Below, piece after piece: positions 16,334 to 64,000 of a DNA stretch of 64,000 nt (the stretch's first letter is position 1; the number at the start of each line of letters is the position of its first letter). The DNA lies in assembly GCA_963664435.2 (NCBI GenBank), contig CAXXKM010000002.1, positions 1,053,852 through 1,117,851 on the forward strand, read 5' to 3'. Below the pieces are notes generated by a model. It had not been told where the DNA came from. It saw only the letters and a program-made list of their open reading frames with translations, and searched no databases. This stretch comes from Longimicrobiales bacterium (lineage in GTDB: Bacteria > Gemmatimonadota > Gemmatimonadetes > Longimicrobiales > Gaopeijiaceae). Made by a program: the position numbers and the translations under genes.

Positions 16334-16367
16334 ACATCGAAGTTCAAATAGCACCACGGAGGAAGGA

Positions 16368-44215: not shown

Positions 44216-44319
44216 GAGGGGCTGGCTCCCGCCCCCCCTTCGAACCCCCCGCTGTTCGCGCTCCCGAGGAGGTCGCGGATGGGGGCGCCGCCCCCTTTCC
44301 CCCGTGTCGGTGCGGCGTG

Positions 44320-44658
44320 ATGCCTGAGCGCCGCACCGCGGTCGTCACCGCCCGCGTGTCGGCGGCCGAGTCCGCCGACTGGCGGGCCAAGGCGAAGGCC
44401 GCAGGCGTGCCGCTGTCCGCGCTGATCCGGCGGGCCATGGCCCGTACACGGACCTGGACGGCCCGCGCCGCCGAGGTCGAGCGCGAGCGCACGCGGCAGG
44501 TGTCGCGGATCGGGAGCAACCTCAACCAGATCGCCAAATGGGCGAACACCCACAAGGGGGCGGCCGAGGCCGTCGAGGTCCTCGCCCGTCTGGTTGCCAT
44601 CGAGCGCGCGCTCGGCGCACTGGCTCGATTCGAGAATCCGGAGCGCGATGCACGTTAA
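44320..44658 (+). CDS. MbeC/MobC relaxosome protein
   Basis: RQVSRIGSNLNQIAKWAN. Confidence 0.88.
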   Translation: MPERRTAVVTARVSAAESADWRAKAKAAGVPLSALIRRAMARTRTWTARAAEVERERTRQVSRIGSNLNQIAKWANTHKGAAEAVEVLARLVAIERALGALARFENPERDAR

Positions 44659-46438: not shown

Positions 46439-49315
46439 CTAACTCCGGCTCCCCCCAATGTCCCGGAACTCCCGATGCCCGGTCGCCAGCAGCCGGTCGA
46501 TCAACGAGCTTGCGCGGACGCGACTTGCCGGATTCGCCAACGCGGCCCGGAGAATACACCGTGCCGAGTCGGTGCGTCCGAAGAGGACGCTGGAGCTACT
46601 GCGCCGACGATTCCCGCTGCTGGACAGCTCTTCCGCACCGACCCAGGACTCCAGCACGGCCAGAGTCTCGGTGGGGTGGCGTTCGGACAGCTGCGCCAGA
46701 CGGTCCATCACATATCTCCGCGGTTCGGCGCCGCCGGCGTGCTTGACCAGCCGTCCAAGCTGCGCCAGCGTCCACTCGTCGTCGAAGCGCCCCGAGGAGA
46801 ACCACCATCCGAGCGAGTCGAGATGTCCCATTCGCTCGCGTCCCCGCTTCCGCAGAACGTCTATCAGCGACTCGGCGAGCGATGCGAAGCGCGTCAGGGT
46901 CTCGCGCGGAAACTCGCGATCCTCGTTGTGCAGATCCCGGCCGATCCGCCCGACCGCGCCACGTGCTTGCTCAGGCTTCGCATTCTCGAAATAGTCTCTC
47001 AGGAGCGCGTCGTCGTCCCAGGACAGGTGTCCGCGGCCCGTCATGACCAGCAGGTGCACCCCTAGGTTTCTGTCGGTCTTGTCCCTTGGCGACGAGTTAC
47101 GCGGGCCACTAGTTGTCATCCGATTGACGGCAGTCGCGTACTGCTCGCGGAGCATTTTGAAGGGCGTGTCGTACGCCGGGCAGAATCGCAGGTAGGTCTC
47201 CCACGCGGCATCCCGAAGTGCCGGGCGGCGATGCGGGAAGATCCTTTCCACGTTCCGGTCGGCCCAGTCCGCGTCGAGTAGGACTAGGTGCGGGAACCAC
47301 TGGCCGTACACTGACCGCACCGCCAAGGACGGGTCATTGTCGGGATCAAGGTGCCAGTCTAACCTCTCGCGGACCTCGGGAATCCTGTCCATGGAAGGCC
47401 GAACTGCATTGGCACGGTTCGGGCCAGCCAGCGATCGGTAGACCCACAATGCATAATGGATCACCGCATGCAAGGCGTTCCCCCGCACGCAGTTGATCGA
47501 CCTAGTCGCCGCGTCTAGGCTGGGTTCCGCCGCGTCCTCGGGCGCGGGGTCGGGATCGTTTGCCAGCGCGTCGATCAGCGCCCAGACGGCAACTCGAAAC
47601 CTAGGCGAGATTACGTCGTCCGTCAGGCCCGCAACCAGCATGGAGGCGGTCTCCCGGCGGGCCGACCGCCATTCCCGGTCGCCGACAGGCCGCTTCACCA
47701 CATCGGCGAGCACATCGAGGACGGCAGTCCAGTCTACCGGGCGGTCCGCAAGGACAGCTTCGCGCACCCCCCGCACCAAGGCTTCCACATAGCGAGCCGG
47801 CAGGTTCACGAAGGAGTCGCGTGCGGCCAAGTAGCGCGACGTTGATCGCGCGACGGCCTCTTCCAGCACTCGGGCGAGACCCTCCTGATCGGGCGACATA
47901 GGATCGCCCGTCGGCTGCCAGGACTCCAAGTACACGGCCACCTCCGAAGCCGACATCGCCTCCAGATCCGTGACTCCCACCGGACTCGTCGGACCCATCC
48001 AGCTCGTCGTGTACGAGACGAAGTCCGGTTGTTCGGGTTCGCCGATCTCGCTGACGATCAGCGCGTGGCGACGCTTCCATTCGTCGTCCAGATCCTTGCG
48101 GATCCAGGCAAGACGACGGGCCTGCCAGTGGAGCCGCATCCTGTGGCGGGCCTCCTCGTCACCGTCGAAGCGGCCGTCCAGGGAGGGGCCGTCCTCGATC
48201 CACTTCAGCACGGCGGCCCTTTCCGACGGGTCCAGCTTCGGGAAGACGGCACCAAGCAGCCCGCTGTACTCGTGGAGCAGGCGGTCGTCGAAGAAACGGT
48301 CCTCGTTCACGGCCAGCTCGGCCGCAAACCGCGGATGCCTGGAGCACTGCTCCCTGGCAAGGTGCAGCAGGATCCGGTGAAAGATAGTGCCGCTGCGACC
48401 ATCGAGGACTTGCGCTACGGACCGAATGTCGATCCCGGCTTCGGCCAGTTGCTTGGAGCCGTCCCTCACCGCGTCGATGAGAAAGTCGGTTACGTCGTGT
48501 CCGTAGTTCTGGCCGTGCGGCTCAATGGCCGGGCGGGAGAGGGAGTCCACATACCTGTCGCATCCGGCCGCGTCAAGCGGCTTCTCAAGGAGATCGCACA
48601 GCAGGGCGAGGGCCCGGGTGCCGCCGTGCGACAGCAGCACGGGCACCCACCGTCGCACGAACTCCTCGTACTCGTATTCGTCGATGCGGGGAAGCAGGCG
48701 GCTGAACATGCTGAAGGCCATCATCTCGGCTGCGAGTCCAGCGATCTCGGTATCCTCTCCGCACACATCTTCCACCGCGGGCGGGTCCCGCATCAAACGT
48801 TCTCCGGCCGAATCCATCTCGGCGCGCAATTCCAGCAACGATCTGGCCAGAGCCATCGCGGCATTGATCTCCCCGGACTCGGCCAGCCGCCCCATGACCG
48901 GACCAAGTGCTTCGGCAATCGGCTGGTGAACACGACCCTGCTCCGAGAGCCACGCGGCCTCCTTCTTCGCCCAACGCGCCGCCATCTTCACCGGCATGTG
49001 GGCCGCGGCCCCTACGAGGTCCATGTGGACCGATTCGTTCGACGTGGTTGGAATCCCCAACACGGCCTCTCCAACCTCCTTCGGCGCGAGCTGGGCCATC
49101 CGGGCCAAGTACTCCGATTCCGGCCAAGCGGGGAAGCTGATCAGATCCTCGTCCACGAATTGTGGCGCGGGTGGGTCGCTGAAAAAGCCCGCCTCACGAA
49201 GCGGTTCGATCCAGGCGGGCGAGTCCAGCCTGCGGAAGAAGTAGGCGTAGTTGACGGGACGCTTTCTGATCAGCTTCAGCGCGTTTTCGACCAGTTCCGG
49301 ACTAGGGCTAGGCAT
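46439..49315 (-). CDS. large alpha-helical hypothetical protein (958 aa), defence-associated type
   Basis: GAGGAG RBS; 8-nt overlap with the upstream gene; YFF..LDSPAWIEPL...GFF..PP, WPESEYLARMA; no NTPase motif seen. Confidence 0.75.
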   Translation of the reverse strand: MPSPSPELVENALKLIRKRPVNYAYFFRRLDSPAWIEPLREAGFFSDPPAPQFVDEDLISFPAWPESEYLARMAQLAPKEVGEAVLGIPTTSNESVHMDLVGAAAHMPVKMAARWAKKEAAWLSEQGRVHQPIAEALGPVMGRLAESGEINAAMALARSLLELRAEMDSAGERLMRDPPAVEDVCGEDTEIAGLAAEMMAFSMFSRLLPRIDEYEYEEFVRRWVPVLLSHGGTRALALLCDLLEKPLDAAGCDRYVDSLSRPAIEPHGQNYGHDVTDFLIDAVRDGSKQLAEAGIDIRSVAQVLDGRSGTIFHRILLHLAREQCSRHPRFAAELAVNEDRFFDDRLLHEYSGLLGAVFPKLDPSERAAVLKWIEDGPSLDGRFDGDEEARHRMRLHWQARRLAWIRKDLDDEWKRRHALIVSEIGEPEQPDFVSYTTSWMGPTSPVGVTDLEAMSASEVAVYLESWQPTGDPMSPDQEGLARVLEEAVARSTSRYLAARDSFVNLPARYVEALVRGVREAVLADRPVDWTAVLDVLADVVKRPVGDREWRSARRETASMLVAGLTDDVISPRFRVAVWALIDALANDPDPAPEDAAEPSLDAATRSINCVRGNALHAVIHYALWVYRSLAGPNRANAVRPSMDRIPEVRERLDWHLDPDNDPSLAVRSVYGQWFPHLVLLDADWADRNVERIFPHRRPALRDAAWETYLRFCPAYDTPFKMLREQYATAVNRMTTSGPRNSSPRDKTDRNLGVHLLVMTGRGHLSWDDDALLRDYFENAKPEQARGAVGRIGRDLHNEDREFPRETLTRFASLAESLIDVLRKRGRERMGHLDSLGWWFSSGRFDDEWTLAQLGRLVKHAGGAEPRRYVMDRLAQLSERHPTETLAVLESWVGAEELSSSGNRRRSSSSVLFGRTDSARCILRAALANPASRVRASSLIDRLLATGHREFRDIGGSRS

Positions 49316-50030
49316 CGCGGGACTCCTCGATAAGGGAGTCGATCGAATCCAAGTCTCGTGACGTGCTGGGGAGGAGTCGATCACTCAGGAAGACCTCAAG
49401 GTCGTCGATCCTGGCGCGCAGGGTTTCCAGATCGGTGTCCTTGCTATGGTGAGAGACCCCCACGAAGAACCCTCGAATCTCCTTCCACTGCTTCCAGCTA
49501 CTACTCACGAGCGGTGTCGAGAAAGCGAGTCCGGAGGGGTCGAGTCCGATCAGCATACGCTCGAACAGCTCGCGTCGCAGGGGGCGGACTTTGGCGAACC
49601 ACTGGAAGAACGCATCGAGCCTGATCAGAATCTTGCGCAGGTGCGGGTCGATTTCCCCGTTCCAACCCGACTCGTCGGAATGACATGTCGTTTTCTTCCT
49701 TCTCTTCCAGAACAGGTCTTTGACTGCTATGACCCTGTGCGTCAGATCCACGGGAGGCCCCCCACCCCCATTGCCATCCGTCACTCTCGCGAACCGCCCC
49801 TCAATCTTCTCCATGAGTTCCCTCATGCTGTGGGCCGACTGCGCGAGCCACTCCGGATTCGAGTCGTCTTCGAGGACGCGGAGTCCTCCCACGTAGATGC
49901 GGCCCAACCGCGGCTCGAAGCGGCCAAGCGCGTCGCGCAGCGCCTCTTGCTCCCGCGACAGGTGCGGCCGGTGCTTCGAATCGGCTTTGGGGGCATCGCT
50001 TTCCTGATCGGTTGGTGCGGGTGGGGGCAT
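49308..50030 (-). CDS. hypothetical protein, HEPN/Abi-like helical domain
   Basis: NPEWLAQSAHSMRELMEKI and C-terminal FFVGVSHH; start uncertain. Confidence 0.6.
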   Translation of the reverse strand: MPPPAPTDQESDAPKADSKHRPHLSREQEALRDALGRFEPRLGRIYVGGLRVLEDDSNPEWLAQSAHSMRELMEKIEGRFARVTDGNGGGGPPVDLTHRVIAVKDLFWKRRKKTTCHSDESGWNGEIDPHLRKILIRLDAFFQWFAKVRPLRRELFERMLIGLDPSGLAFSTPLVSSSWKQWKEIRGFFVGVSHHSKDTDLETLRARIDDLEVFLSDRLLPSTSRDLDSIDSLIEESRDA

Positions 50031-51095
50031 GGAAGGGGACAATAGTAGTCCTGCGGTGGCGGTCGAGTCCGGGAACGGGCACACCCGACCGCTCGCTCCG
50101 GTCAGGCGCGGTCGCCTCCGGCGGTCAAGGTCATCATTGCACGCGACCTCCCCGAAGCTGGGGAGGCGGAAAACGGCCGGGTACGTGGTGGCCACGCACC
50201 GGGCCCGGCCACGCGCCCACCACAAGATAGCCTTCTCTACGATCCAGCGGCAGCCCGTTGCCGATCATCCATGCCAGCGTCTGCTCTGCCCGCTCCGCCT
50301 CCTTCCGGTTCCGCTCGGCACCCGGTTGACAGTCGTCTCTCGTCATGGCGGCTGCGGGTGCGAAGCGGCCTCGGTCGGGACCGCAGCCGTATCGCTCGGC
50401 CCGGCCAGTAGGTTGGCAGAGACCGGCGCGTTCGTCCCCCCACATGCCCGAGGCTGTCGCGTCCCACGTTGCTATGGCATGTGGCGCTCGTTCGAGGAGG
50501 AGTGAGTGAGTCTGGGCACTCTGCCTCGCCGACCGTGAATTGCCGGTCGGACACCGGAAGTGTACCTTCGCTCACCCACCCACGGCCCGTCCCGCCCCAA
50601 GAACGCTCCCACCCTAATCGCGCCGAATTGACCCTATGGAAACCCAGATCACCAACGTCATCCAAGCCTTTCAGAACTCGAAGCAGTACGTCATGGAGTG
50701 TACGGTTGGGTCCGTAGACGCAGGCGGCAAAGTGGCTCTGTCGGAAAGCTCCCGACGTATCCGTTGTGACCGCGCGCTGAGCCTGCCGCCGTCCAGAGCT
50801 CACGGTCTTCGCGACAGAGCAAACACGACGTCGTTGCGCTCGGCCTTCTCCACCTACAGCGTCGGACAGGTCGTCTCACCGCACTTCCGGCACAGGGTGG
50901 AGCGGGCAGTGCCGAGGAGGGCGAGGGCTGCGGCAGGATCTTGCAACGGCGAAACTCCGACGGGGCAAGGCGCGAGTCGGGTGACTCGTCAGCGCGTCCG
51001 GCAAACGAGTTGCCGACCAAACCAGGAAGCCTCCACATTGGGGGCCCTCCGTTTACCCCCTGATTGACCCTCAGACTCTATCCCCCGAATCCACC

Positions 51096-53384
51096 ATGGC
51101 TATCACCGTCTTCAAGGACAGTTCGTACAGCCTGTCCACCCTCCTCGAAGAGATTGACAGGGGCGAGATCGCCCTGCCGGACATTCAGCGCCCCTTCGTC
51201 TGGAAGGCCGCCAAAGTCCGCGACCTCTTCGACTCGATGTATCGAGGTTTCCCCGTGGGCCATCTGCTGTTCTGGGCGACCGGCGCGGAAATGGGTGCTC
51301 GGCGAATCGGTACTCATGCCCACGAGGCCGTCCCACGCCTGATGATTGTCGATGGCCAGCAACGCCTGACCAGCCTCTACAGCGTCCTAACGGGAAAGGA
51401 AGTCCTTCGCGAAGACTACACGTCCTCACGGATCCGTATCGCGTTTCGGCCCCGGGACGGCAGCTTCGAAGTCGCCGATGCAGCCGTCGTAAAGGACCCC
51501 GAGTTCATCCCCGACGTCTCGATTCTCTGGGACGGCGGTGGTCGGGCCAAGAAGGTGCGCGAATTCCTCAAGCGCTTGGAGGCAGGCAAGAAGGGTAAGC
51601 TGCCTGAAGAGCAACGGGATGACCTTGAAGAGGCGATCGACCGACTCTACGACCTCCGCAACTACCCCTTCAAGGTCATGGAGTTGGGTTCAAACGTAGG
51701 CGAGGAACAGGTCGCAGACGTATTCGTCCGGATCAATAGCGAGGGCGTCCGACTCGGTCAGGCCGACTTCATCCTCACGCTGATGTCCGTTTGGTGGGAG
51801 GAGGGCCGCAAGCAGCTGGAGACCTTCGCCCGCGACGCCAGACTTCGGCCGCAGGGGCCGTCTCCTGCAAACCCATTCATCGACCCGTCGGCAGACCAGA
51901 TGCTGCGCGTCGTCGCGGGCTTTGCGCTCCGCCGCGGGCGCCTTCGATACGTCTATCAGGTGCTGCGTGGCAAAGACCTGGAGACCGGCGAGGTCTCGGC
52001 TGAAATCAGGGAGAAGCAGTTCGCCGCTTTGCAGGAGGCTCAGGCGGAGACGCTGTCGCTGACCAATTGGCACGAGTTTCTCAAGGCCGTTCGCCGTGCC
52101 GGATACCGAAGCCGTGCGATGATCAGCTCGCAGAACAACCTGATGTTCTCGTATCTGATGTACCTAATCGGACATCGGGACCACCGGCTCGACCGAAAGG
52201 CCCTCCGTGAAGCGATCGCCCAATGGTTCTTCATGACCTCGCTCACGGGCCGGTACACGGGGAACTTCGAGAGTCGCGTGGAGCAGGATCTCCGCCGCAT
52301 CGCCGAGGCCAAGTCCGGTGATGAGTTCGTGGCAACCCTGAACGGAATCATCGATACGGCGCTGACGGAGGACTACTGGACCATTCAACTCCCCAGCTCG
52401 CTCGAGACTTCGTCAGCCTATGGCCCGACGGTGTTCGCGTACCACGCCAGCCTCGTTTTGCTGAATGCGCGACCCCTGTTCTCGCCGCTTCATTTGGGTG
52501 AGCTGTTGGATCCATCGGCCCACGCTCCTAAATCGGCTGTCGAACGCCACCATCTTTTCCCGAAGGCGTACCTTACTCGGATCGGTATCGACCGCACGGT
52601 GCAGCGGAATCAGATCGCCAACTACGCCTTTGTCGAATGGCCTGACAACACGAAGATCGGCGACTCACCACCCCGCGACTACTTCCCTCCCCTTTTCGAG
52701 GAGCTCGGGCCCCAGGAGCAGAAGCAGACTCGGTTCTGGCACGCTCTGCCGGAGGGTTGGGAGCAGATGGACTATTGGGAGTTCCTACAGGAACGCCGGG
52801 TCCTCATCGCCGGTGTCGTTCGAGCGGCGTTCAACAAGCTCCGTACTGGGAGGCTTCCGGAGGAGGACGAACTGCTGCCGCCGTGGGCCGGAGTGCCCGA
52901 ACGGTCGCTTGAGGAGCTCCTCGCCGACATGGAAACCGAGCGGGTCGAGTTCAAGTCGTCCGCGTACTACAGCTACAAGCCCGAGGTGCCCACCAGGGTC
53001 ATTACGGATTCCGTGGTCAAGACCGTCGCTGGTTTCCTGAACGCCAGCGGTGGTACCCTCGCAGTCGGCGTCGCCGATGACGGTGAGATCCTGGGGATTC
53101 AGCCGGACCTGGACATGAAGAACATGGACGGGGATCGGTACGTGAACTCACTTACGAACGTGATCGAGCGCTCGCTCGGGTCACTCGCGTCAACGATGGC
53201 GACGATTGAGTTACAGGCGGTCGACGGGGTTCAGGTCGCCCTGGTGCGTGTCACTCCGTCTCCCGAGCCGGTCTACGCCAAGGTCTCCAAGAGGAACGGG
53301 GCCCTCTTCGTGCGGGTGAACAACTCGACCCGGGTCCTCGAAGGGGCGGATCTGGTTGGGTATGTCAACGAACGTTGGGCTTAG
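51096..53384 (+). CDS. DUF262 + DUF1524(HNH) GmrSD/SspE-like protein fused to a Schlafen AlbA_2 domain
   Basis: LPDIQRPFVW, VDGQQR, FVRINSEG, ERHHLFP..NQIAN, VEFKSS, AGFLNASGGTLAVGVADDG. Confidence 0.88.
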   Translation: MAITVFKDSSYSLSTLLEEIDRGEIALPDIQRPFVWKAAKVRDLFDSMYRGFPVGHLLFWATGAEMGARRIGTHAHEAVPRLMIVDGQQRLTSLYSVLTGKEVLREDYTSSRIRIAFRPRDGSFEVADAAVVKDPEFIPDVSILWDGGGRAKKVREFLKRLEAGKKGKLPEEQRDDLEEAIDRLYDLRNYPFKVMELGSNVGEEQVADVFVRINSEGVRLGQADFILTLMSVWWEEGRKQLETFARDARLRPQGPSPANPFIDPSADQMLRVVAGFALRRGRLRYVYQVLRGKDLETGEVSAEIREKQFAALQEAQAETLSLTNWHEFLKAVRRAGYRSRAMISSQNNLMFSYLMYLIGHRDHRLDRKALREAIAQWFFMTSLTGRYTGNFESRVEQDLRRIAEAKSGDEFVATLNGIIDTALTEDYWTIQLPSSLETSSAYGPTVFAYHASLVLLNARPLFSPLHLGELLDPSAHAPKSAVERHHLFPKAYLTRIGIDRTVQRNQIANYAFVEWPDNTKIGDSPPRDYFPPLFEELGPQEQKQTRFWHALPEGWEQMDYWEFLQERRVLIAGVVRAAFNKLRTGRLPEEDELLPPWAGVPERSLEELLADMETERVEFKSSAYYSYKPEVPTRVITDSVVKTVAGFLNASGGTLAVGVADDGEILGIQPDLDMKNMDGDRYVNSLTNVIERSLGSLASTMATIELQAVDGVQVALVRVTPSPEPVYAKVSKRNGALFVRVNNSTRVLEGADLVGYVNERWA

Positions 53385-53891: not shown

Positions 53892-54326
53892 TCACTCTAC
53901 TCCAATGTAGTCGGGCAATTGTGTCAGCATCGTCAGCGTGGGCTCCGCTGCACCGGCACAGATCTCCCCGATCACGCGTGCTCCAGTAGCGGCATACTCT
54001 GCCGCCATTTGGATCGTGCCGGATGGGTTGTCAAGTCCTTCCTCGCCGAATTCAGCTAGGGCGAGGAGCTCCAAATGCGTGATTCTCCAAGGATCGCTTG
54101 AGAGAATGCCTCCGTCATTGAATTTAACGAGTTGGTCTTTTGGTCCGAGCCGAGTTCGATGCCCGATCTTGACGCCAAGACACAGCGCGCACCACCAGAG
54201 ATCGATCTGGCGCCGAAACGGCTTCCGAACGTCCCCTCGGCCTTGGAGCGCTTTCACGTGATTCTGATGGAACTCCGATGGCCAGAAAAGGTCTTGATTC
54301 GCAAACGGGTTCAATATAGCCGCCAT
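53892..54326 (-). CDS. small DndE/PbeD-like protein
   Basis: last gene of the operon, 2 bp after the ATPase stop; PFRRQIDLWWCALCLG. Confidence 0.55.
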   Translation of the reverse strand: MAAILNPFANQDLFWPSEFHQNHVKALQGRGDVRKPFRRQIDLWWCALCLGVKIGHRTRLGPKDQLVKFNDGGILSSDPWRITHLELLALAEFGEEGLDNPSGTIQMAAEYAATGARVIGEICAGAAEPTLTMLTQLPDYIGVE

Positions 54327-54328
54327 GC

Positions 54329-56470
54329 TTACGTCTCCCTGAACACGAGGTCGTGTTGTTCGTCATACCGGCGTTGACAGGTCTTGCACACGTGGCGATG
54401 CCCGCAGTCGCAGCGTCTCACGATCGGTCGGCGCACGCCCCAGTCGTTGACGAGGTCCTTCGGGTAGTCCTTGGAACAGGAGAGCGTCAGAGCCACGCCC
54501 ACGCGATCGTCCAAGAGTTCCTCAAGGTCGCGAATCTCGGAGCGGGTCATGAGCAACACAACTTGGAAGTCCACTGTTCCCTCCGAGCGAGGTGACGTAA
54601 TCATTTCGACTACTCGATCCTTCACGCCTCCGGAAGTCATACCAAGCGGCGTATCGATGATCCGGGGCGCTTCTCTCCCCGAGACTTCCATTAGAGCCCA
54701 AATGAACGCAAGGGTAAGTGCGCGCTGCTGAGCACCGCTCAGCTCAAAATCGGGGTCGAGCGTATTTCCTCCGCTGCCCTCAATCACGATGTCGAAGCGA
54801 TCATTAATGAAGACGCGTTTGAACACACTCACTTCAGCATCGGGATCGCTCCCGACGATATGCAGAAACAGATCATTCATGCGACCTGAGACAACTTGGA
54901 TCCATTTCGTCTTCAAGATCCCAAGGATCTTGTCAGCGACATCCATGAGATCCTCGGCCACCTTACGCTTGATCCGGAGCTTCGCACCGACTAACGCTTT
55001 CGCCTCCGCCTTCCCGTACTCGTCTTCCAGTTGACCCACTGAGGCCTCGGCTCCCTGAATCTGGCCGTCCAGTCGCCCGATCGCCGTTTGCGCGTCTAGT
55101 TTCTTCCTCTCGTTGCGCTTGATCCGTTCCGTCAGTCGGCTGACCTCTTCCTCGTCGATCAAGCCACGGCGCGCCTTCTCCGCCTCTAGATCCCCGGATT
55201 TGGCCCCAAGGCGGTGCCGAACGTCTGTGTAGTCGGCAAGATTGGATTTCCGGAGCTCAGCGAAGCCATGGCCTTTCTGGACGCGACTGGCGTGGATTGC
55301 CAAGCTCCGTCGAGCGAGATGCCACGTCTCAGTCTGCTTGGCTCTACGCGGCGCGACCTCCTCCTGCTGAGCAACCAACGTGGCGACGTGGTCGTGGTGC
55401 TCAGTACCTCTCTCCAACGACTCGCCGCAGATGCACTCAGCGAGCTCAAGACGATCTCGTAGTACCTCAATTGATGTCCCCGGGATTACGTTCCTGTCCG
55501 CCAGACTTTCTAAGAGGCGGACACCCTGGCTGAGCTTGTCCTCAATCACGTGCCATGAGAAATCCTCTCCCTGTAGGACCCGGCGCATCCCCGACAACGC
55601 GGCTTGCTCACGCCCTTCCAGGTCGGCGATATCCGATCTAAGGGCTTCGATCCGAGCGTTGATCTCTTCCAGATCTCCGATTCCCTTGATCGCCGTGAGC
55701 GCTCGATCATCCTTAAGGATTGCTTCCGCGATTCGGTTCCTTCGGTTGGTGGTGTCCGCCAACGTGCTCTTGAAGTTTCTTAGCTGGTCTTGCGCCTCCT
55801 CAAGCTGTTGCTGCCGCTTCGAGAGCCCGACGCCTCCGGCCTTAGCGATCTCTCTCTTGAAGGCTTGAGAGGCGCCCACAAGGTCATCACGCGCAATCTC
55901 GAGTTGCTCGAGACCCAGGAGCAACCTGATCGCCTCATGAACCGACTCCTGCCGCTCGGCACTCGCAAACCCACTGATGAACTGCTGAACGTCATCGCCA
56001 TTGGTGAAGAATATCTTGGACAAGCGAGGAGGCACCAGCTTCAATACAAGTGCCTGCGCTCCATCTCTAATTTCCTCGTCACCCACCTTAGTTACCCGAA
56101 ATAGCTTCAGCCCTGGGGCTCCGCGATCGTGTTTGTCATCAGATCTCGGCGTTTCCGTGACTGACCGGATCAAGCGATAGCGAGTGTGAATACCCGCAGT
56201 TTCATCGAAGTGCTCGAACTCAATCCTCACCTGTACCGGCACAGGAAAGTCAACCTGAGACGCGGTAGATGTAAGCCGGAGTCCCCGGGCGTCCTCGGGC
56301 AACCCCTCACTGCCGTAAAACGACCAAAGGAGGGCATAGAGGAGAGAAGTCTTTCCCGCGCCATTCTCAGCCCGGATGATCGTGAGCGGGCGGTTAGGGT
56401 CCGTGGAAAAGTCGAGGTCCACATCCTCGAGGAGCTTGAAATTCCTGATATGAGCACTGATCAGCCTCAC
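54329..56470 (-). CDS. SMC/Rad50-like ABC ATPase (DndD/PbeC-like) with Cys-rich tail
   Basis: AENGAGKT, long coiled coil, LSGAQQR, IIDTPLG, CDCGHRHVCKTC. Confidence 0.85.
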   Translation of the reverse strand: MRLISAHIRNFKLLEDVDLDFSTDPNRPLTIIRAENGAGKTSLLYALLWSFYGSEGLPEDARGLRLTSTASQVDFPVPVQVRIEFEHFDETAGIHTRYRLIRSVTETPRSDDKHDRGAPGLKLFRVTKVGDEEIRDGAQALVLKLVPPRLSKIFFTNGDDVQQFISGFASAERQESVHEAIRLLLGLEQLEIARDDLVGASQAFKREIAKAGGVGLSKRQQQLEEAQDQLRNFKSTLADTTNRRNRIAEAILKDDRALTAIKGIGDLEEINARIEALRSDIADLEGREQAALSGMRRVLQGEDFSWHVIEDKLSQGVRLLESLADRNVIPGTSIEVLRDRLELAECICGESLERGTEHHDHVATLVAQQEEVAPRRAKQTETWHLARRSLAIHASRVQKGHGFAELRKSNLADYTDVRHRLGAKSGDLEAEKARRGLIDEEEVSRLTERIKRNERKKLDAQTAIGRLDGQIQGAEASVGQLEDEYGKAEAKALVGAKLRIKRKVAEDLMDVADKILGILKTKWIQVVSGRMNDLFLHIVGSDPDAEVSVFKRVFINDRFDIVIEGSGGNTLDPDFELSGAQQRALTLAFIWALMEVSGREAPRIIDTPLGMTSGGVKDRVVEMITSPRSEGTVDFQVVLLMTRSEIRDLEELLDDRVGVALTLSCSKDYPKDLVNDWGVRRPIVRRCDCGHRHVCKTCQRRYDEQHDLVFRET

Positions 56471-56703
56471 ATGTCCTCCTCTTGCTTGGTCTGCGTAGCG
56501 ACCTGTTGGCCAAAGGCCTCAAGGACTCGTCGAACCTCCCGTCGCCGTGCAGCCGTGGTGAAGCCGCTTCCCTGACATTCGATGATCTCTGTGAGTTTGC
56601 TTAGAAGTTGCTCGCGGTAGCCGTCGTACCGCTCGGGCACTTCCAGAACCACTTCTCGGGCCACCTCCTTCTTGAAGCCTGATGCATGTTTCATGATCGT
56701 CAT
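56467..56703 (-). CDS. small protein (78 aa) in the PbeB position
   Basis: 4-nt overlaps with both neighbours. Confidence 0.7.
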   Translation of the reverse strand: MTIMKHASGFKKEVAREVVLEVPERYDGYREQLLSKLTEIIECQGSGFTTAARRREVRRVLEAFGQQVATQTKQEEDM

Positions 56704-58886
56704 GAACTCCTTTGCAGTCTATTCTCGAGACGGCGGATCGCTTCGTCTCCCCCGCCTTCATCGAACTCGTTTCTCGAGTAGATGACGAACTCCGTGACAC
56801 GCCTGAGTTCGGCCCGAAGGAGCGAGCGCCCCGTGTCACCGGGAGGATCAGGTGGCGTGGCAACGAAATCGTGAAGCGTGGCATGCTCTTTCCCAGGCCA
56901 AGACCTCAACACGCGCCCCCGCCTTTGAACCCACTCTCTTTCCACGGAGCTCGAGGCCAGCAGGTAGGCGGTTTCCGTTTGTGGGATGTCCACACCTTCG
57001 TCGAGGACCCTCATCGCCGTCAACATCTGGTAGTCCCCCTGGCCAAAGGCGGTGAGAATGCGTTGACCGTCCGCGGTGCTAGTCTCAACGTTCGTGAATT
57101 GGTGCGAAACGATCCCAAGCTCGGCCAGCAGCCCGTTTACAAGTTCGATCTGGCGAGGGCGTCCGAGTACGGTCGGCTTGGCCGAGACGTAGACAAGAGA
57201 CCGCCGGAGCACGCTCACATCGACAGCCTCCAGCATGTTTCTCAGGTGCCCGAGCTTGTTGCCCGCCTGTTCGACAATGGCTCGGCGCTCCCTCAGTATG
57301 CGCTCCGTCCGCGGCGTGAGGTTCATCACCTGTCCCTCGTCGTCAACTCGGAAGCCCAACCGCCGCAGTTGAGCGGTGAGATCCGCGTATCGCTCCGCCT
57401 CTTCCTCGGTCAGCTCTACCTCATGCACATAGTAGTCATACGCGACCAAGCACCCCGCCTCGATTGCGTCACCGATCGTGAATTCAATGAGCACGTCGCC
57501 GAAGTAGTCAGCGAGCCCACTGGTACCGACCGGATCGTATTGGCGGATCGGCGTCGCGGACAGACCCAGACGGTACTTGACAGCCTCCGGTCGATGCTTC
57601 AAGAAGGACGGTGTGCCAAAGTTGTGAACCTCATCCGCGATGAGCATCGTGCTCACCCGCATGCCAATCCGGTCAAGCCAAGCCCTGAGAGGTTCGTCAC
57701 CGCCATACATCTGGTTAGTCCCGATTACCACTTCGGTGTGTGCCTTCCCGGACCGGAGTGCCGCCTCAATGACTTCAAGTTCGCGCCTGCGGGTCTTTAC
57801 GGTTGCTCCGGACAGCACTGAGGGGTGAACGCCGAACGAACGGACCTCTGCCGCCCACTGGTTCACAAGAGGCCGAGATGGCACCAAGATGAGGAGGAGA
57901 AAGGCACCGTCAGATCGATCCTGGAGCAGTGTGGCCGATATGAGCGACGCCTTCGTTTTTCCTCCGCCGGTAGCGATGGAGAAGATTCCGCGCCCCATTT
58001 CAAGGAAGCTGTCCACCGCTACACCCTGATGCGCAAACCGGCCAGTCCGCCAGTGTAGGTCGGCGGGGATACGAAGCTTACGCACATTGCGAGGTCGTCG
58101 GGCGTTCGGCGGGAGCGGCACCTCAATCCCTGCCCGGAAGTCCGCCTCCCATGCGGCCCAGAAGTCCTCGACCGTAGGGACGTCATCCCCCGAGCGAACG
58201 TGCCTCTGGAGAAAACCCAGAGCCTGATGAGCCGGAACAGTCAGCGAACCAGGAGATTCATTTTTCCACTGCCGCACGAACTGGTTCACAAAGATGTCCA
58301 CCCGCTTGCGGGCGGCGTCGCCGTCCTTCCACGCCCGGTCAATCGTCATTTGCTCGCCATTCACCAACAGACCTCTATGCGTGGCATTCCCCGAGCCGTG
58401 CACCGCTAACCAATCGTCGCCCTGTCGCAGAAGCCATTTTTTCTTGTGATACATGCCGGCATCCATCAGCACGAACCGGATCTCGAGCCGCTTTGAGGCG
58501 ACGAGATAGGCGAGACAGCTCAGGCAATGGGCATCGGTCGCGTTCCCAGATCGCCTTGCCTCAAGCAACAGCTCGATCACAGCAGCGTTCATAACGGATT
58601 CCGCATTAGTGACACCCGACTCAATCGCGGCGCGATCCTCACTGGAGATCGCCGGACTAGCGAGGAGGCGTATCTCGCCCGACGGCCTCTGGAGAAGCGC
58701 GGCCAGTCCCGGGGCTATTTGCGCAAGACATCGAGAGGAGAAAAAGCCAGCCCCAATGAGAATGGTCTGAGCACACCGCATTGCAGGGATCAGCACCTCA
58801 CCAACGAGATCGTCGTGAGGAATCTCGTATGCGGGGCGAACGGAGGCGACCACGGTCCGCAACACCTCATCACTAGCTGGCTTCAC
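56700..58886 (-). CDS. PLD-like nuclease + SF2 DExH helicase (PbeA-like)
   Basis: GFFSS, YHKK...HGSGNAT, ATGGGKT, DEVH, GLSATP, QRRGRVLR. Confidence 0.85.
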   Translation of the reverse strand: MKPASDEVLRTVVASVRPAYEIPHDDLVGEVLIPAMRCAQTILIGAGFFSSRCLAQIAPGLAALLQRPSGEIRLLASPAISSEDRAAIESGVTNAESVMNAAVIELLLEARRSGNATDAHCLSCLAYLVASKRLEIRFVLMDAGMYHKKKWLLRQGDDWLAVHGSGNATHRGLLVNGEQMTIDRAWKDGDAARKRVDIFVNQFVRQWKNESPGSLTVPAHQALGFLQRHVRSGDDVPTVEDFWAAWEADFRAGIEVPLPPNARRPRNVRKLRIPADLHWRTGRFAHQGVAVDSFLEMGRGIFSIATGGGKTKASLISATLLQDRSDGAFLLLILVPSRPLVNQWAAEVRSFGVHPSVLSGATVKTRRRELEVIEAALRSGKAHTEVVIGTNQMYGGDEPLRAWLDRIGMRVSTMLIADEVHNFGTPSFLKHRPEAVKYRLGLSATPIRQYDPVGTSGLADYFGDVLIEFTIGDAIEAGCLVAYDYYVHEVELTEEEAERYADLTAQLRRLGFRVDDEGQVMNLTPRTERILRERRAIVEQAGNKLGHLRNMLEAVDVSVLRRSLVYVSAKPTVLGRPRQIELVNGLLAELGIVSHQFTNVETSTADGQRILTAFGQGDYQMLTAMRVLDEGVDIPQTETAYLLASSSVEREWVQRRGRVLRSWPGKEHATLHDFVATPPDPPGDTGRSLLRAELRRVTEFVIYSRNEFDEGGGDEAIRRLENRLQRSS

Positions 58887-61168
58887 GCTTCAAATACCCT
58901 CGCCAGTCGGTCGATCTGCGCTTCCAACGCAGGGGAAGTGTCCGGTGACGGTACATGATCTGCTAACTCCGCGTCTCCCCTTCGCCTCAGAAACCGAGCT
59001 AACCCGGCCGTATCTGACTCGACGGCAGCTGCCAGTCGCGACAACAGCTCCTGCCCAAGTCCCTTCAGACCCGTCATCTCCCTTAACAGCAGGTCACCGG
59101 CCAGAGCATCGACCTGCTTCTTGGCAACCAGACGAACATCCACCGATCGCGCTTCGCGATGGAAGGTGACCCGGAGGCGATCACCGACCTTGCCACCCAG
59201 CGCCTCCGCGTGGATGCGAAGTGACCCAATCGTAGGCCCGCTGATCGAGGTATCCGGCCAGGACAGACGGACAGCCGCAGCGTCAGCCTCGTAGGCCCTA
59301 CTATCGCCAGGCATTACAGCTAGTAGCCCTGCCACCTCCTCTGCGACGGATCGTCCACTGCCTCGTAGAAGATCATGATCGATGTCGATCAAGACTGAGA
59401 CCTCATTGTCCGAGCGCTTGAACACTCCGCACGCTCGCGACAGATCGGTGCTCACGGGGAAAGGATCATCGTCGCGGCGGTGCCGGACCAATCCATGCTC
59501 GACGACGAAACGAGGAGCGTTACAGAGGGCAATCACGGAGCTCTCAGCGACACCCCATGCGACAGATAGTCGAGCGGCTAGCTCATCGATACGCAGCGAT
59601 GGACCGTTCTGGGACAGCTCTTCAGAAATGATCGACGCGATGCCTGCGTACTCGGGGAGCCCCCACGCTCGCAAGCCCCACTTTGACCGCTCGATACGAA
59701 CGAACTCCTCACGTGATGAGAGTACGGCCCTAAGGGATCGTATACCGACTTCGGGTCCAAGGTCCGCGAGTAGCTCGTCAGGACTGAGGGGAGCCTGCCG
59801 CAATCGCATCAGCGACAGGACGCGTCCACCAATTGTTCGCGGCCATTCGATCACGCTACGCCGGAGATCTCGCATCCCAGACTTGTGGGTGAGCCACGCA
59901 GCGAAAATACGGGGACGCAATCCCGCCTCGCACATCACTTCGCGCGCCGTATCGAACCCGATCGAGCCAACTCTCTTGGCTTCTTGCATGAGTCGGACTA
60001 GCGCGGCTTCGAGCTTCTCGGCGTCGGTGACTAGCCAACCATGGGCTAGCTTGTATGGTCCGGCCAGCCGGAGGATCACGGCACGGACAATGTCGGCTTC
60101 AACGTGCGACCGAAGTTGGCCAGCGGAGAGCAATGCCTCCGTTGGTTCATCACCCAACGGGATCGCCACCCCCGCGACCCGCCGGACCTTATGGACCCTC
60201 CAGAGTACAGGCTCCCATGCTTTGGTTCGGGGAAGTCGTTCCAGATCTTCGATCAAACGGCCTTCGACCTGTCGAATCCGCTCGCGTGATACACCGAACT
60301 CGGAGGCGATGTCCTGGAGCGTCCTGGCTCCCGAAAACACAAGGGTCCGAGACGACAGGATGACCTGTCGTCTCTTGTCGAGCGATCGGTACCAATCGAG
60401 GATCGCGGCGAGAGGATCGGAAGCGTTCGATGTGGCGATCCTTGAACGAACCGCTCCATGCCACAGCCGTGCTAGGTCTGGAGGAAGTCCGTCAGATTCA
60501 CGCGTTGCGTCTAGCAACTCGGCCACTGTCTTGATCCCGCCCTCTGTGCTGGCCCACCGACATAGCTGTTCTAAGGATCTGTGCACCTCCTCTGGTACAT
60601 TCGACACCGGTTCGAGCTGCGGGTCTTGTCTCTTTTCCTCCCGAGCGTTGGTCGATCTATTCGGCGCTTCGCCGGCGGGGGCGGCGAGCGTACCTTCCGG
60701 GGACGCGACCCCTGCGGCTTCAGCGACGCACATCAGTTCCAACAGCGAAGTCATCCCGAAGTTTGGGATGGCGAGGAGGTCGTCCACGGACACATGGCCC
60801 GTTAGATGCAGGAACCCGCTCCTGACCAAGGCATTCGTTGTTCGCACGCTTAGTGGACCCAAGAGTTCGGCTCGGTCGATTTCGGCAGGTATGACAACTA
60901 GGGACGAGGGCGGGGGATTGGTGTTCGCGATGTGTAGCAATGAACGCCGGATCGGATCGTCGATCGGTTGCAATCTGCCGTTCCAGAATGTCGAAAGGTC
61001 GCCTATCTTATTCACCGCTGGATTACCCGCACGGATTTTTCGGGATACCGGCACGTTGGGAAGGTTGTCGCGATACCAGCGTGGCAGCAGCGGCGTAGGA
61101 GGACTACCCCACGGCGCCACTTCGAGGCGCGCTTGCCCGGAGTCAATCTCGTGGGGGATGTGGTTCAC
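58883..61168 (-). CDS. mosaic protein: RNAP alpha-CTD-like + sigma70 region 4 + winged-HTH domains
   Basis: LSVRTTNALVRSG..LLAIPNFGMTSL; TLQDIASEFGVSRERIRQVE; FVRIERSKWGLRAWG; GTGA overlaps at both ends. Confidence 0.8.
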   Translation of the reverse strand: MNHIPHEIDSGQARLEVAPWGSPPTPLLPRWYRDNLPNVPVSRKIRAGNPAVNKIGDLSTFWNGRLQPIDDPIRRSLLHIANTNPPPSSLVVIPAEIDRAELLGPLSVRTTNALVRSGFLHLTGHVSVDDLLAIPNFGMTSLLELMCVAEAAGVASPEGTLAAPAGEAPNRSTNAREEKRQDPQLEPVSNVPEEVHRSLEQLCRWASTEGGIKTVAELLDATRESDGLPPDLARLWHGAVRSRIATSNASDPLAAILDWYRSLDKRRQVILSSRTLVFSGARTLQDIASEFGVSRERIRQVEGRLIEDLERLPRTKAWEPVLWRVHKVRRVAGVAIPLGDEPTEALLSAGQLRSHVEADIVRAVILRLAGPYKLAHGWLVTDAEKLEAALVRLMQEAKRVGSIGFDTAREVMCEAGLRPRIFAAWLTHKSGMRDLRRSVIEWPRTIGGRVLSLMRLRQAPLSPDELLADLGPEVGIRSLRAVLSSREEFVRIERSKWGLRAWGLPEYAGIASIISEELSQNGPSLRIDELAARLSVAWGVAESSVIALCNAPRFVVEHGLVRHRRDDDPFPVSTDLSRACGVFKRSDNEVSVLIDIDHDLLRGSGRSVAEEVAGLLAVMPGDSRAYEADAAAVRLSWPDTSISGPTIGSLRIHAEALGGKVGDRLRVTFHREARSVDVRLVAKKQVDALAGDLLLREMTGLKGLGQELLSRLAAAVESDTAGLARFLRRRGDAELADHVPSPDTSPALEAQIDRLARVFEA

Positions 61169-62013
61169 AGGGCACAGACGGTGCAAGGGGTTGTATCGTC
61201 ATCCTCTTCAAGGGCATCGGCGAGAACCTCGATAAGAGGGAGGTCGGCCTGGCGAGTTGCCGCGCGCGACATGGCGGCTTCGTGGCGGGCCACAATCTCG
61301 TCTCGGCGTGAGCGGAGCTGAACCAGTGTTTCGCCACCAGACCAGGTGTACTGCCTCCCTCGCATTGCACGATCGCTGAAGTCAGCCTCGCCATCTGCAC
61401 CAGCTTCGAGAAGGACCTTCTGCTCGATCGCTACGGCCCGCTCGAAGAGCTCCGGATGACGGTCGGCGAGGCCGACCCACTCCGCCTTGCGCTGGTAGAA
61501 ACAGAAGTAGCAGCCGGAGCGTGTCCGCCATTCGTAGTACTCGGGGAGACCGATGCCTGCATCCACAAGGATCCGCATCACGCCGGCACGGTCGATCCCT
61601 TCCTCAATGAAGGGAAACCGCGTCTCGATGTTCTTCTTGGTAGAGATGTAACCCTTCCGGTTAGACTCGTCGGCGCGGATCGCGACATAGGATAGCGCAG
61701 CGTCATCGCCGATCCATTCCTCGATCGGCTTGATCTTCATGTTCTTGGTGCACCATCGCATTTGCGGCGAGGGCAGGGTGCCGCGAAAGAGTTCGAACCA
61801 GTGGTCAAACCCGCGTCGGGCATTCAGGCGGGCGATGGGCTTGCCGAGGATCACCTCGAGTCTCGTCAGGTATTCGTACGTCTCCGGGAGTTCAGCGCCT
61901 GTATCGCAGAAGAAGTACTCCATATCCGGAATGCGCTCACGCATGTGGACCGCGAGGGCACTTGAGTCCTTGCCCCCGGAAATCCCGCAAATGTGCCGGA
62001 CGGGTTCAGGCAT
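61165..62013 (-). CDS. PAPS reductase family protein (SspD-like)
   Basis: SGGKDS PP-loop, DTGAELPET, RWCT, RSGCYFC, C-terminal CTVC. Confidence 0.88.
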   Translation of the reverse strand: MPEPVRHICGISGGKDSSALAVHMRERIPDMEYFFCDTGAELPETYEYLTRLEVILGKPIARLNARRGFDHWFELFRGTLPSPQMRWCTKNMKIKPIEEWIGDDAALSYVAIRADESNRKGYISTKKNIETRFPFIEEGIDRAGVMRILVDAGIGLPEYYEWRTRSGCYFCFYQRKAEWVGLADRHPELFERAVAIEQKVLLEAGADGEADFSDRAMRGRQYTWSGGETLVQLRSRRDEIVARHEAAMSRAATRQADLPLIEVLADALEEDDDTTPCTVCAL

Positions 62014-64000
62014 GTTTCTCGCTCCTGATTCTCGAGTCGGTCGCTGATTCTGGATCGTTTTGTTTGGTTCGCGGGAGCAGTCGGTCTCCGAGGCACGCGA
62101 GGAGTGTTTTCTCAGCTTGCCCCAACGAGCCCAGATTGCCCTCGAGGGTGGCAAGAGCATCTGCGAGTACCTGCTCGGCGATGGGACGGTCGGCGTCGTC
62201 AACCGCTACGAGACGGTCGTGCTCCCGGCCGTCCGGTCGAGTGATCGTGATGCGAAGCGACTGGAACGGCCCACCGCCCCGGGCGCGACCTGCGGCATGC
62301 AGTGCCACGAGGCGCTGGAATGCGGCAACCTGCACGCGGAGTTCGTGTCCGAAACGGGCGAAATCCCGGTCCGTCCATTCCGTCGGCGCCTTCTTCGACA
62401 GGACCGTCGCAATTGTACTCACCCACTCGGCGTCGTTCTTGGCGGGATCTCCCCTGAGAGCCAGCACGAAGGCCCGTACTACGGGATCGAGAACTTCGCC
62501 GTCCAGGGCGGCGGCCTGACCGCTGACGGCCAGGCGAGTCTTCTCCGCAGCGGTAAGTAGAAGGCTCGACAGAAGTTCGTCCTGCAGCTTGGCGTACCTT
62601 CCGCCCAATTCATCCATCGCGGCACCGAGGCGCTCGACGTAGGCGGCCTCCTCCTGATATCGCCGTACGTCTGGAGGGATGATCGGCAGACCGAACGATC
62701 CGGGAAGATGATCGAACACGAGTTCGTCCGGTTCCACGGCACTCACAATGGCGGCCCGGGCCGCCCGGGCGTCGGAACTCATCGCACGTGTTCGCAGCGT
62801 GAAGTTGTCGAGACGCCGGACGAGGGAAACGAGGTGCCCCGCGATTCCCAAGACGTTTGCGACCCGGTACTTTCGGAATACCGGACGCACGCCAAGCCGC
62901 CGCGCCAGAGCGTTGATCAAGCGCCTCCGAGCTCCAGAGGTGTTCGCGAAGTGCTTGATGTCGAAGTGGTAGGGATTGCGCACCATCCGCTCGGAAACCT
63001 CTGGAGCCAGCAACGGCCTGAAGGTGCCGTGCTCATAGATGGCGATCTCGTCTCGATGGGCTAGGAACGCGGCTGTCAAGAAGACCGGAACAACCCCGTA
63101 CTTCATTCCGATGGGACTCGACAAGAGCGCCGCATGGATATGCTTGAGATTCATGCGACGAGTCTTAGCGCGCGCGAACTGCTCTCCAACCACTTCCCAC
63201 GCGTGCGCTAGCGAATCCGTCGCGGCCGGCGCTCCGAAAGAGGGACGGTTTCCTCCCTTTGTGAGACGGTGGATGCCCGTTCGATGAAGGAATGCCCGGT
63301 ACATCGCAACCTCGGGGCCATACCCTTCGAGTCCCAAGTCGGGCTCGTCCCCCCGCTCGATCATCGCACTGACAAGTAGGCGTCGCGCCTTAGCACCCTG
63401 TGACGTAAGCTGTGTGCGGTTTAGCACCTCGTTTCCGATGATCGGTGTGAACTTGAAGGCCATGTCGGCTGCATGCGAGAGCGCGTGGCTACCGCGCCTC
63501 GCTGGCAACGGCGTAGTACCCCCGGGCTCCAAGAGAATCCAGCGACACGCATCGGCGCGAAACGTCTCATGCACCTCCGCCTCAAGATTGGTCTCGGCTT
63601 GGGCGAGCCACTCGGCCAGTTCGCGGCGAGCCACCCAATCCTCCGCTACGAGCGGCTCCTTTAGACTCGTCCGCACCGCCAATACCTCCCGCGCCGCCTG
63701 GTCCAGCCCTGCCACATCCCTCGGGATTGCGGCAACGATTGGCTTGGCCGAGCGCGAGCCGTCGGAGAGGCTCGGAGTCGCATGAATCGAATCAACGATC
63801 AGTAGCGCCTCACCGTCATAATGGGAGAAGGGATCGACGGGTGCGACGGGTTCCGCTGCATCCGCGTACCGTCTCTTGAAGACCCTGAGCACGTCGTTCT
63901 CGGCGCTGTGTCGCGCCGCAACCACCGGAGCCAACGGGTTGAATGCCGAAAGGACCTCTACGAGCGGCTTCCGCTGGATCCGTGCGCGAGCGCCATCAAC
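62006..64000 (-). CDS. large SspC/BrxC-like ATP-binding protein, C-terminal part (5' end outside the window)
   Basis: frame open to the window edge; NEVLNR, YGPEVAMY, PIGMKYGVVP, IAIYEHG; 8-nt overlap with the PAPS reductase; Walker motifs not visible here. Confidence 0.7.
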   Translation of the reverse strand, partial: VDGARARIQRKPLVEVLSAFNPLAPVVAARHSAENDVLRVFKRRYADAAEPVAPVDPFSHYDGEALLIVDSIHATPSLSDGSRSAKPIVAAIPRDVAGLDQAAREVLAVRTSLKEPLVAEDWVARRELAEWLAQAETNLEAEVHETFRADACRWILLEPGGTTPLPARRGSHALSHAADMAFKFTPIIGNEVLNRTQLTSQGAKARRLLVSAMIERGDEPDLGLEGYGPEVAMYRAFLHRTGIHRLTKGGNRPSFGAPAATDSLAHAWEVVGEQFARAKTRRMNLKHIHAALLSSPIGMKYGVVPVFLTAAFLAHRDEIAIYEHGTFRPLLAPEVSERMVRNPYHFDIKHFANTSGARRRLINALARRLGVRPVFRKYRVANVLGIAGHLVSLVRRLDNFTLRTRAMSSDARAARAAIVSAVEPDELVFDHLPGSFGLPIIPPDVRRYQEEAAYVERLGAAMDELGGRYAKLQDELLSSLLLTAAEKTRLAVSGQAAALDGEVLDPVVRAFVLALRGDPAKNDAEWVSTIATVLSKKAPTEWTDRDFARFGHELRVQVAAFQRLVALHAAGRARGGGPFQSLRITITRPDGREHDRLVAVDDADRPIAEQVLADALATLEGNLGSLGQAEKTLLACLGDRLLPRTKQNDPESATDSRIRSEKHA

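Follow-up and report, generated by a model that had tools for sequence, protein, structure and literature searches.

The described systems closest to the locus reported here each share one half with it. In the DndCDEA-PbeABCD system of Haloterrigena jeotgali A29 (PMC6459918), whose effector is also known as the CxC ABC ATPase-DndE system (PMC10853773), a phosphorothioate (PT) writer adjoins genes in the order PLD/HKD-helicase, small protein, CxC ABC ATPase and DndE-like protein, while the SspABCD-SspE and SspABCD-SspFGH systems (PMC8092258) carry a complete sspA-B-C-D writer in canonical order. Pbe modules have been reported with Dnd, with methylases or without a partner (PMC6459918, PMC10853773), Dnd and cytosine methylases being the partners listed for the CxC module (PMC10853773). 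In one survey, which covered Dnd and methylases alone, 165 of 553 pbeAC clusters lacked a known writer (PMC6459918), and 83.9% of 2,678 sspBCD clusters had neither SspE nor SspFGH, further partners being predicted (PMC8092258). The present locus lies at the end of a 64,000-nt stretch of DNA (the window) from a Longimicrobiales bacterium (assembly GCA_963664435.2, contig CAXXKM010000002.1, positions 1,053,852 to 1,117,851). It has the gene order of the A29 cassette with an adjoining PT writer; unlike A29, this writer is SspABCD instead of DndCDE and an accessory gene is inserted. The writer is as complete and canonically ordered as in the SspE and SspFGH systems, but its effector slot holds Pbe.

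The Ssp+Pbe locus is real, and is well supported as a genetic unit made of named parts (Table 1). Nine genes follow one another over about 13.8 kb in the order sspA-B-C-D, a gene for an alphaCTD/sigma4/winged-helix protein, and pbeA-B-C-D. The seven minus-strand open reading frames (ORFs) listed in an earlier note on this DNA are all present, with the sizes and junctions claimed, being joined in order by overlaps of 8, 4, 4, 4 and 4 nt and then a 2-nt gap (the sspD/accessory overlap is 4 nt with the GTG start at 61168 and 22 nt with the TTG start). Moreover, PADLOC recognizes SspC, SspD, PbeA and PbeC within this single overlap-joined run, as expected from the proposed coupling of an Ssp-type writer to a PbeABCD-type cassette. 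The window stops at the end of its contig (C2), the last 3,200 nt of which are the end of contig C1 reversed, at 100% identity. Across this join lie the two genes which the earlier note had advised seeking beyond the 64 kb, namely sspB, encoding the DUF4007 protein (Pfam 278 bits, PADLOC 341 bits), and sspA, encoding the cysteine desulfurase (PF00266 217 bits; PADLOC SspA 406 bits versus DndA 390); sspA, sspB and sspC are linked there by overlaps of 1 nt and 4 nt. An assembly chimera was ruled out, since the join is found on a single contig, 100% identical, in G303, whose genus differs but whose family is the same, and run X1 has an assembly contig of 6,131 nt that bridges it. The GC content falls from about 0.68 genome-wide to 0.58–0.63 across the operon. 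Operon-wide co-transcription is predicted; a promoter/terminator scan gave nothing above chance.

In the writer half, the desulfurase, the DUF4007 protein, the SspC ATPase and the PAPS reductase all lie in one cluster, each scoring above 340 bits in PADLOC. SspC carries a Walker A motif (GPYGSGKS) at residue 64, and in SspD the first Ser of the SGGKDS PP-loop, C88, C168 and C171 are invariant in 56/56 homologues, C277 and C280 being kept in 55/56. SspB, SspC and SspD are homologous to the DUF4007, BrxC and BrxP proteins of BREX type 4 PT systems (PMC12914056, PMC12839542). Nevertheless, BREX type 4 was rejected, since SspD scores 361 bits on its own PADLOC family versus 38 on BrxP, the next one, and neither PglZ nor BrxL had a PADLOC match among ten window proteins. 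The 96%-complete genome gave no match to DndC (TIGR03183) and no full-length SspE, just short DUF262-type matches away from the operon; one SspF model had no match in it either, the control of the same model being also blank. Genome-wide 4-mer ratios were uninformative on PT marking. The closest named SspD relatives, among the best 80 of at least 342, are metagenome-assembled genomes (MAGs) of Gemmatimonadota. Members of the same SspD clade, at 67–70% identity, are also present in Thaumarchaeota MAGs, among them Cenarchaeum and Nitrosopumilus (L060, L063-L065, L080), some of these loci carrying the helicase-HATPase cassette described below, which places Ssp-type writers in archaea.

In the effector half, PbeA scores 341 bits against TIGR04095, below the cut-off of 600. 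Its nuclease residues H147, K149 and G164-S165-N167, the Walker A residues G309-K310-T311, D418-E419-x-H421 and Q654-R-R-G-R are invariant in 16/16 aligned sequences. The position of the HKD aspartate is occupied by Arg154 and varies among homologues; the catalytic His and Lys are intact in this operon, DNA cutting by PbeA being disputed in print (PMC10853773, PMC6459918). For the ATPase, PADLOC gives 169 bits to PbeC versus 125 to DndD. Cysteines C346, C348, C687, C689, C695 and C698 are invariant in 49/49 aligned proteins, the C346-x-C348 hook is present in 65/65 with Walker A and B conserved, and the C-terminal tail reads CxC-x5-CxxC (Cys4). The name "SMC ATPase" given to this protein beforehand had to be abandoned: a hinge domain and a coiled coil of 800-1000 residues are the criteria for structural maintenance of chromosomes (SMC) proteins (PMC10853773), whereas the present one is a CxC Zn-hook ABC ATPase of 713 residues in total, with no SMC-type layout. 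The 78-aa protein had no family match (Pfam, PADLOC and further family models); an ORF of the same place and size recurs in related loci, several being 37–44% identical. The 144-aa protein, which the earlier note had left unnamed, is indeed the last gene product of the operon and may be refined to a DndE-like PbeD, by position and weak family matches. Its top matches in the Atlas were to PF27807 (0.93–0.94), yet with a recognition of 2150, under the tool mark of 2300; against TIGR04062 it gave E=0.13, with 5/17 homologues matching (best 6.9e-6). PADLOC had no match for it, a PDB profile search returned nothing under E 0.8, and a single-sequence AlphaFold2 (AF2) model, with a pLDDT of 40, was uninformative, the ribbon-helix-helix fold not being confirmed.

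The pairing recurs when seen from the effector. With one PbeA protein as query, scanning metagenomes gave 29 candidate stretches, none of them confirmed; a later scan used an alignment and gave 408 metagenomic PbeA relatives, the best 80 of which were taken blind to their neighbours. Genes of ssp type occur in 45 of these 80 loci and in 37 of the 41 that span at least 10 kb (32/35 after merging PbeAs at least 90% identical), whereby a one-off juxtaposition was rejected. A DndC probe gave no match at E<=1e-10 in loci L003-L178. Over 58 loci, the arrangement was ssp>pbe in 44, convergent in eight, divergent in three and pbe>ssp in three. Cultured carriers include a Sphingomonadaceae plasmid (CP099618.1), with sspABCD-pbeABCD in tandem, and Streptantibioticus ferralitis, with the two modules convergent. 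Within the phylum (401 genomes including the present one, G000), PbeA was found in nine and SspD in 21, and 8/9 PbeAs lie 1.7–2.3 kb behind sspD, two candidates being scored per genome. Four genomes hold PbeA in a class sample (G401; 390 genomes, excluding the centre): one of 864 bits directly behind sspD, and three of 452–498 bits near dndC, without sspD. Among plasmid PbeAs, 11 of 20 were examined, and two were Ssp-linked, two Dnd-linked, three methylase-linked and four other or unannotated. The synteny expected beforehand was therefore found, the Ssp and Pbe halves co-occurring widely. None of the outcomes named in advance as contradicting a mixed system (no DUF4007 upstream of a PAPS reductase of non-PT affinity, halves never together elsewhere, an already catalogued arrangement) was encountered among those testable. 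The pairing proposed in the earlier note thus stands, not as a one-off hybrid but as the usual arrangement within one Pbe clade.

In nine Ssp-negative PbeA loci of at least 7 kb, 47 ORFs were scanned. One locus each held a PDC-M33A/B set with a DUF6339-PAPS fusion, a BrxP-like PAPS reductase (L144, where it stands directly before pbeA and neither sspB nor sspC was found), a desulfurase with DndB, and a DndB-like gene; five had no writer match, four with less than 2.3 kb upstream of pbeA. In L087 (G061:C1:3646000-3665999), PDC-M33A (HATPase-like), PDC-M33B, DUF6339 and PAPS-reductase-like genes precede a Pbe of the same clade (12723-18961, minus strand), the PAPS-reductase-like gene being split over two frames and accompanied by a cysteine desulfurase, and a like set precedes a same-clade Pbe at L125:2646-7078. 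This set is a candidate for a further type of sulfur-on-DNA writer.

In a FastTree tree of 90 rows, without near-duplicates and fragments, the present PbeA belongs to one clade with support 100, from which the Dnd- and methylase-linked rows are excluded. An IQ-TREE quick tree of 42 rows separated a 29-row clade (SH-aLRT 100), with 25 Ssp, two PDC-M33-PAPS, one BrxP-like PAPS and one desulfurase+DndB rows, from 13 others, namely five Dnd, three methylase, one Ssp and four other. The Ssp-linked PbeA of a Rhizobium indigoferae plasmid lies outside the clade and suggests a second pairing event. The Cys4 tail of PbeC, an independent character, agrees with the trees: without dereplication, 78/79 full-length proteins of the clade have it, the one lacking it being truncated, versus 0/7 of the plasmid outgroup and 0/3 Dnd-linked proteins. 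It would make a simple classifier for annotation tools. Unlike Dnd-linked Pbe, PbeA and PbeC here form a separate clade with a Cys4 tail, the A29 sequences themselves not being part of the comparison; identity to Dnd-linked, methylase-linked or unlinked examples is 27–40% for PbeA and 21–28% for PbeC. As for the statement that Pbe had been described with Dnd in archaea, the link to Dnd holds, Pbe is not specific to archaea, and other partners have been published (PMC6459918, PMC10853773). Correlations of distances between modules were 0.46–0.56, versus 0.78–0.87 within modules, in PbeA-picked loci, and 0.10–0.31 versus 0.80–0.92 in SspD-picked ones. A lack of co-divergence, read from pooled Mantel values of 0.03–0.09, was discarded as partly a selection effect, which became apparent on splitting the loci by the way they were picked.

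The operon probably encodes a complete PT self-marking defence, SspABCD-PbeABCD, carried on a conjugative element, in which the two halves would be coupled through the mark and blocking would be PT-dependent. PT modification and defence are predictions here, made from the gene content, intact motifs, linkage, clade structure and cassette swapping that were observed. From what is known of the families, SspA would take sulfur from cysteine and SspD would transfer it, with SspB and SspC choosing and opening the sites, so that host DNA would carry single-strand PT, such as CpsCA. Judging from Dnd-Pbe, PbeC and PbeD would together scan DNA and the PbeA nuclease-helicase would block the replication of unmarked incoming DNA, the module being active just in PT-bearing cells. 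Archaeal Dnd-Pbe requires PT and spares a PT-marked virus, about half of the sites being hemi-modified in its host (PMC6459918). PT-dependent blocking seems most likely because the characterised Dnd-Pbe behaves in this way and because the linkage found here is at clade level; coupling via the chemical mark seems most likely because the clade stays with Ssp writers while near-identical writers exchange cassettes.

Several observations weigh against such a system. When surveyed from the writer, in the best 80 of the SspD relatives, PbeA was found in just 16 loci (18 tblastn matches minus a 9% fragment and another helicase) and PbeC in 18–20, depending on the method. Other cassettes stand behind SspD, with helicase+HATPase in 23/80 loci, DndB-like in 24/80 and SspE-like in 9/80, PbeA and HATPase occurring together in none of the 80. 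The nearest SspD of this set (97%) carries a different cassette; in G100, where SspD is 95% and SspB 88–90% identical, PbeC is just about 25% identical, and the slot behind sspD is thus exchangeable. Four Latescibacterota genomes (L020, L022, L025, L029) have pbeBC(D) without pbeA behind sspABCD, pbeC being split in two of them. L172 is a real counter-example from the Pbe side: its PbeA shares at least 90% identity with one that is Ssp-linked, yet no ssp gene is seen in its 21.7 kb, which include 10 kb on each side of pbeA. As for sampling, 15/16 rows of the PbeA query alignment came from Ssp-picked loci, so that the search itself helped to define the clade, and seven of the eight other matches in the phylum belong to one family and are not independent. 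Furthermore, the PbeA tree is midpoint-rooted with a small outgroup, its clade support being given without an approximately unbiased (AU) test. The adjacent GmrSD/DUF262 gene, with 26 bits on the SspE model, could be the true partner of the writer; being present in few related loci, it is probably separate cargo. Finally, CxC systems may be suicide effectors or free of any writer (Rakesh 2024, PMC10853773).

Many of these points would fit an autonomous Pbe cassette, either a sensor of DNA structure or a suicide nuclease released from PbeB, which merely fills the slot behind sspD: the variety of cassettes in that slot, the cross-module correlation lying below the within-module one in both locus sets, the lack of a writer near L172, and the writer-free CxC systems already described (PMC10853773). 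Such autonomy is unlikely, in that the neighbour seen from the Pbe side is nearly always Ssp or another PAPS-reductase gene, in four arrangements, and Dnd or methylases remain the partners of the sister Pbe group; sorting by clade would not be expected of a neutral slot. Moreover, Dnd-Pbe, which is PT-dependent in laboratory tests, shows equally weak co-divergence with its writer (rho 0.107; PMC6459918). The pbeA-less loci could instead mean that PbeC-PbeD is a second DndD/DndE-like scanner recruiting SspD, which would give a different or additional PT pattern and place Pbe partly on the writer side. PbeC and PbeD are indeed paralogues of DndD and DndE, CxC-DndE cores have been proposed to recruit modifying enzymes (PMC10853773), L144 has its PAPS reductase directly before pbeA, and the Cys4 tail, specific to this clade, may serve for docking or metal binding. 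This we hold to be quite improbable, since a PbeC as distant as that of G100 behind a nearly identical SspD is hard to square with a tight interface, and SspB and SspC are retained in nearly all loci with enough flank. There is only a slight chance that the operon serves its own element, by excluding rival plasmids or integrative conjugative elements (ICEs) or by stabilising the ICE, with little anti-phage effect. Its position between VirB4-type, integrase-like and AbiEi/AbiEii genes on one side and a relaxase/MobC pair on the other would agree with this, as would the sharing of the element by a genome of another genus. Against it, the characterised relative is antiviral, its writer mutants showing no growth defect (PMC6459918), and homologous operons occur on a plasmid typed as non-mobilizable and in many other genomes, whatever their element context may be.

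Beyond the self-marking SspABCD-PbeABCD defence, a wider proposal is conceivable, if rather doubtful: the Cys4-tail Pbe/CxC subfamily may be a third Ssp effector, which would sense single-strand PT whatever the writer lineage and dock by other PAPS-reductase writers, including PDC-M33A/B + DUF6339, the accessory protein being a mark-reading or RNA-polymerase-mimicking fifth subunit. If true, it would explain some of the orphan sspBCD and solitary pbeAC clusters. A Pbe clade beside Ssp would fill part of both gaps and could explain why many Ssp markers and Pbe modules seemed partnerless. In addition, the same effector architecture would work with double- and single-strand writers, so that the reading of sparse PT marks could be tested cleanly. 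All the named parts are known, as is the mixing of Pbe with writers; the Ssp+Pbe pairing appears undescribed, no paper having been found. No statement on it was met in the literature covered, a partial coverage in which key works may already show the arrangement.

Other contents of the slot were also noted. In 18/80 loci (for example L004:10850-15500, L018, L021 and L048), sspD is followed by a trio of SF2 helicase, HATPase_c_3 and PLD-like genes; it has no matching PADLOC system name, never occurs with PbeA, and is a candidate further Ssp effector. A cassette of DndB-like (DGQHR) and SNF2 helicase genes stands behind sspD in L003, L007, L009, L030, L041, L088 and L096, such cassettes often being accompanied by a GIY-YIG-like gene and an alphaCTD/sigma4 protein.

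The accessory protein between the two halves scores 23.1 bits for alphaCTD (cut-off 23.8) and 26.2 bits for sigma70 region 4 (cut-off 24.1) in Pfam. A true sigma factor was rejected, region 4 standing alone with no region 2 detected (Pfam, E<=0.1). Atlas clusters pointed to sigma70_r4 at 0.95–0.97, with one HARE-HTH at 0.88, and Pfam PF05066 (HARE-HTH) gave no match. The AF2 model (pLDDT 62.7, pTM 0.28) had no Foldseek match at E<=0.001; in VIA-align it reached Z 9.3 to sigma32 region 4, and its residues 422-496 gave Z 8–9 to winged helices, with many rows tied. The top one was 8x6g_E, a chain of 84 residues from an RNA polymerase complex (Z 9.0, rmsd 4.7, 72 aligned), which we take to be the delta subunit of RNA polymerase, the founding HARE-HTH. 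A HARE-HTH winged helix is therefore a lead only. The C-terminal domain is conserved and unnamed, with the motif DxLRGSG...W...GPSLGSxR; it had no convincing Pfam or PDB match (the best was a CDC48 N-domain at E=0.09), and a B3/EcoRII-N-like barrel was dropped as unsupported on that account.

Proteins of the alphaCTD-sigma-HARE-HTH type were reportedly described in restriction-modification neighbourhoods by Aravind and Iyer in 2012. Like them, the accessory combines an alphaCTD-like helix-hairpin-helix, a sigma region-4 helix-turn-helix and winged helices in a defence operon; unlike them and MzaA, whose weak match is confined to the sigma4 region, it has the unnamed C-terminal domain. No link between such proteins and Pbe was found in the literature covered. 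Counted solely in loci picked by SspD or PbeA, homologues occur in 19/24 long loci with a PbeA that shares at least 45% identity with the present one, and in 2/24 others, their position and strand around the cassette varying. They also stand directly before pbeA in three Dnd-linked loci (one weak, 41.5 bits), as does a protein of similar architecture in Ruegeria, and eight SspD loci carry one without PbeA. Homologues thus also flank Dnd-linked Pbe, from which the protein appears to be a general Pbe accessory: the extra component announced in the earlier note is there, as an optional gene instead of one specific to this system. Where present, it would bind DNA and act for the Pbe module as a reader or a regulator.

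Table 1. Genes of the Ssp+Pbe operon and neighbouring features (window positions unless a contig is given)
Feature	Position	Strand	Remarks
sspC, 3' part	62006-64000	minus	5'-open in window; full gene 1,147 aa; PADLOC SspC 495 bits
sspA, sspB, 5' part of sspC	G000:C1:1592255-1598081	plus	outside window, across contig join
sspD, PAPS-reductase-family sulfur transferase	61165-62013	minus	282 aa from ATG; PADLOC SspD 361 bits
Pbe accessory, alphaCTD/sigma4/winged-helix	58883-61186 (TTG start, 767 aa) or to 61168 (GTG, 761 aa)	minus	
pbeA, HKD/PLD nuclease fused to SF2 helicase	56700-58886	minus	728 aa; PADLOC PbeA 562 bits
pbeB-position small protein	56467-56703	minus	78 aa; assigned by synteny
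pbeC, CxC-type coiled-coil ABC ATPase	54329-56470	minus	713 aa; PADLOC PbeC 169 bits
pbeD, putatively DndE-like (dnd_assoc_4 family, weak)	53892-54326	minus	144 aa; position after ATPase
GmrSD/DUF262 fused to Schlafen/AlbA_2	51096-53384	plus	convergent with operon
305-aa ORF without family + 981-aa ORF	46439-50225	minus	981-aa: non-SIR2 part of Dsr1, 129 bits
MobC/NikA, relaxase, overlapping 166-aa ORF	44002-45961	plus	
BlaR1/M56-like behind BlaI-like repressor with tandem heptad-like repeat	40150-42369	plus	by eye

The upstream side of the operon holds an AbiEi-like/AbiEii pair, an S24 peptidase-family gene, a VirB4/TraG-type ATPase and integrase-like ORFs (the integrases by eye), and the downstream side the convergent GmrSD-AlbA gene, the partially Dsr1-like protein and the relaxase/MobC pair. 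The surrounding DNA would thus be an ICE of about 42 kb. The element is 100% identical over more than 30 kb in G303, the 305-aa and 981-aa ORFs included, and identity falls to a divergent allele at about window position 45940. The two genomes may come from related samples, so that this identity is read as a shared element, the transfer being undated. No tRNA gene was found in the window and no clear pair of att sites, one 18-nt match being noted between both flanks. A conjugation and integrase region on contig C1 (G000:C1:1569287-1590000) has several copies, 76–85% identical, elsewhere in the genome, which therefore carries a family of related elements. Elsewhere on contig C2 (G000:C2:689401-692178), 17 tRNA genes lie on one strand within less than 3 kb.

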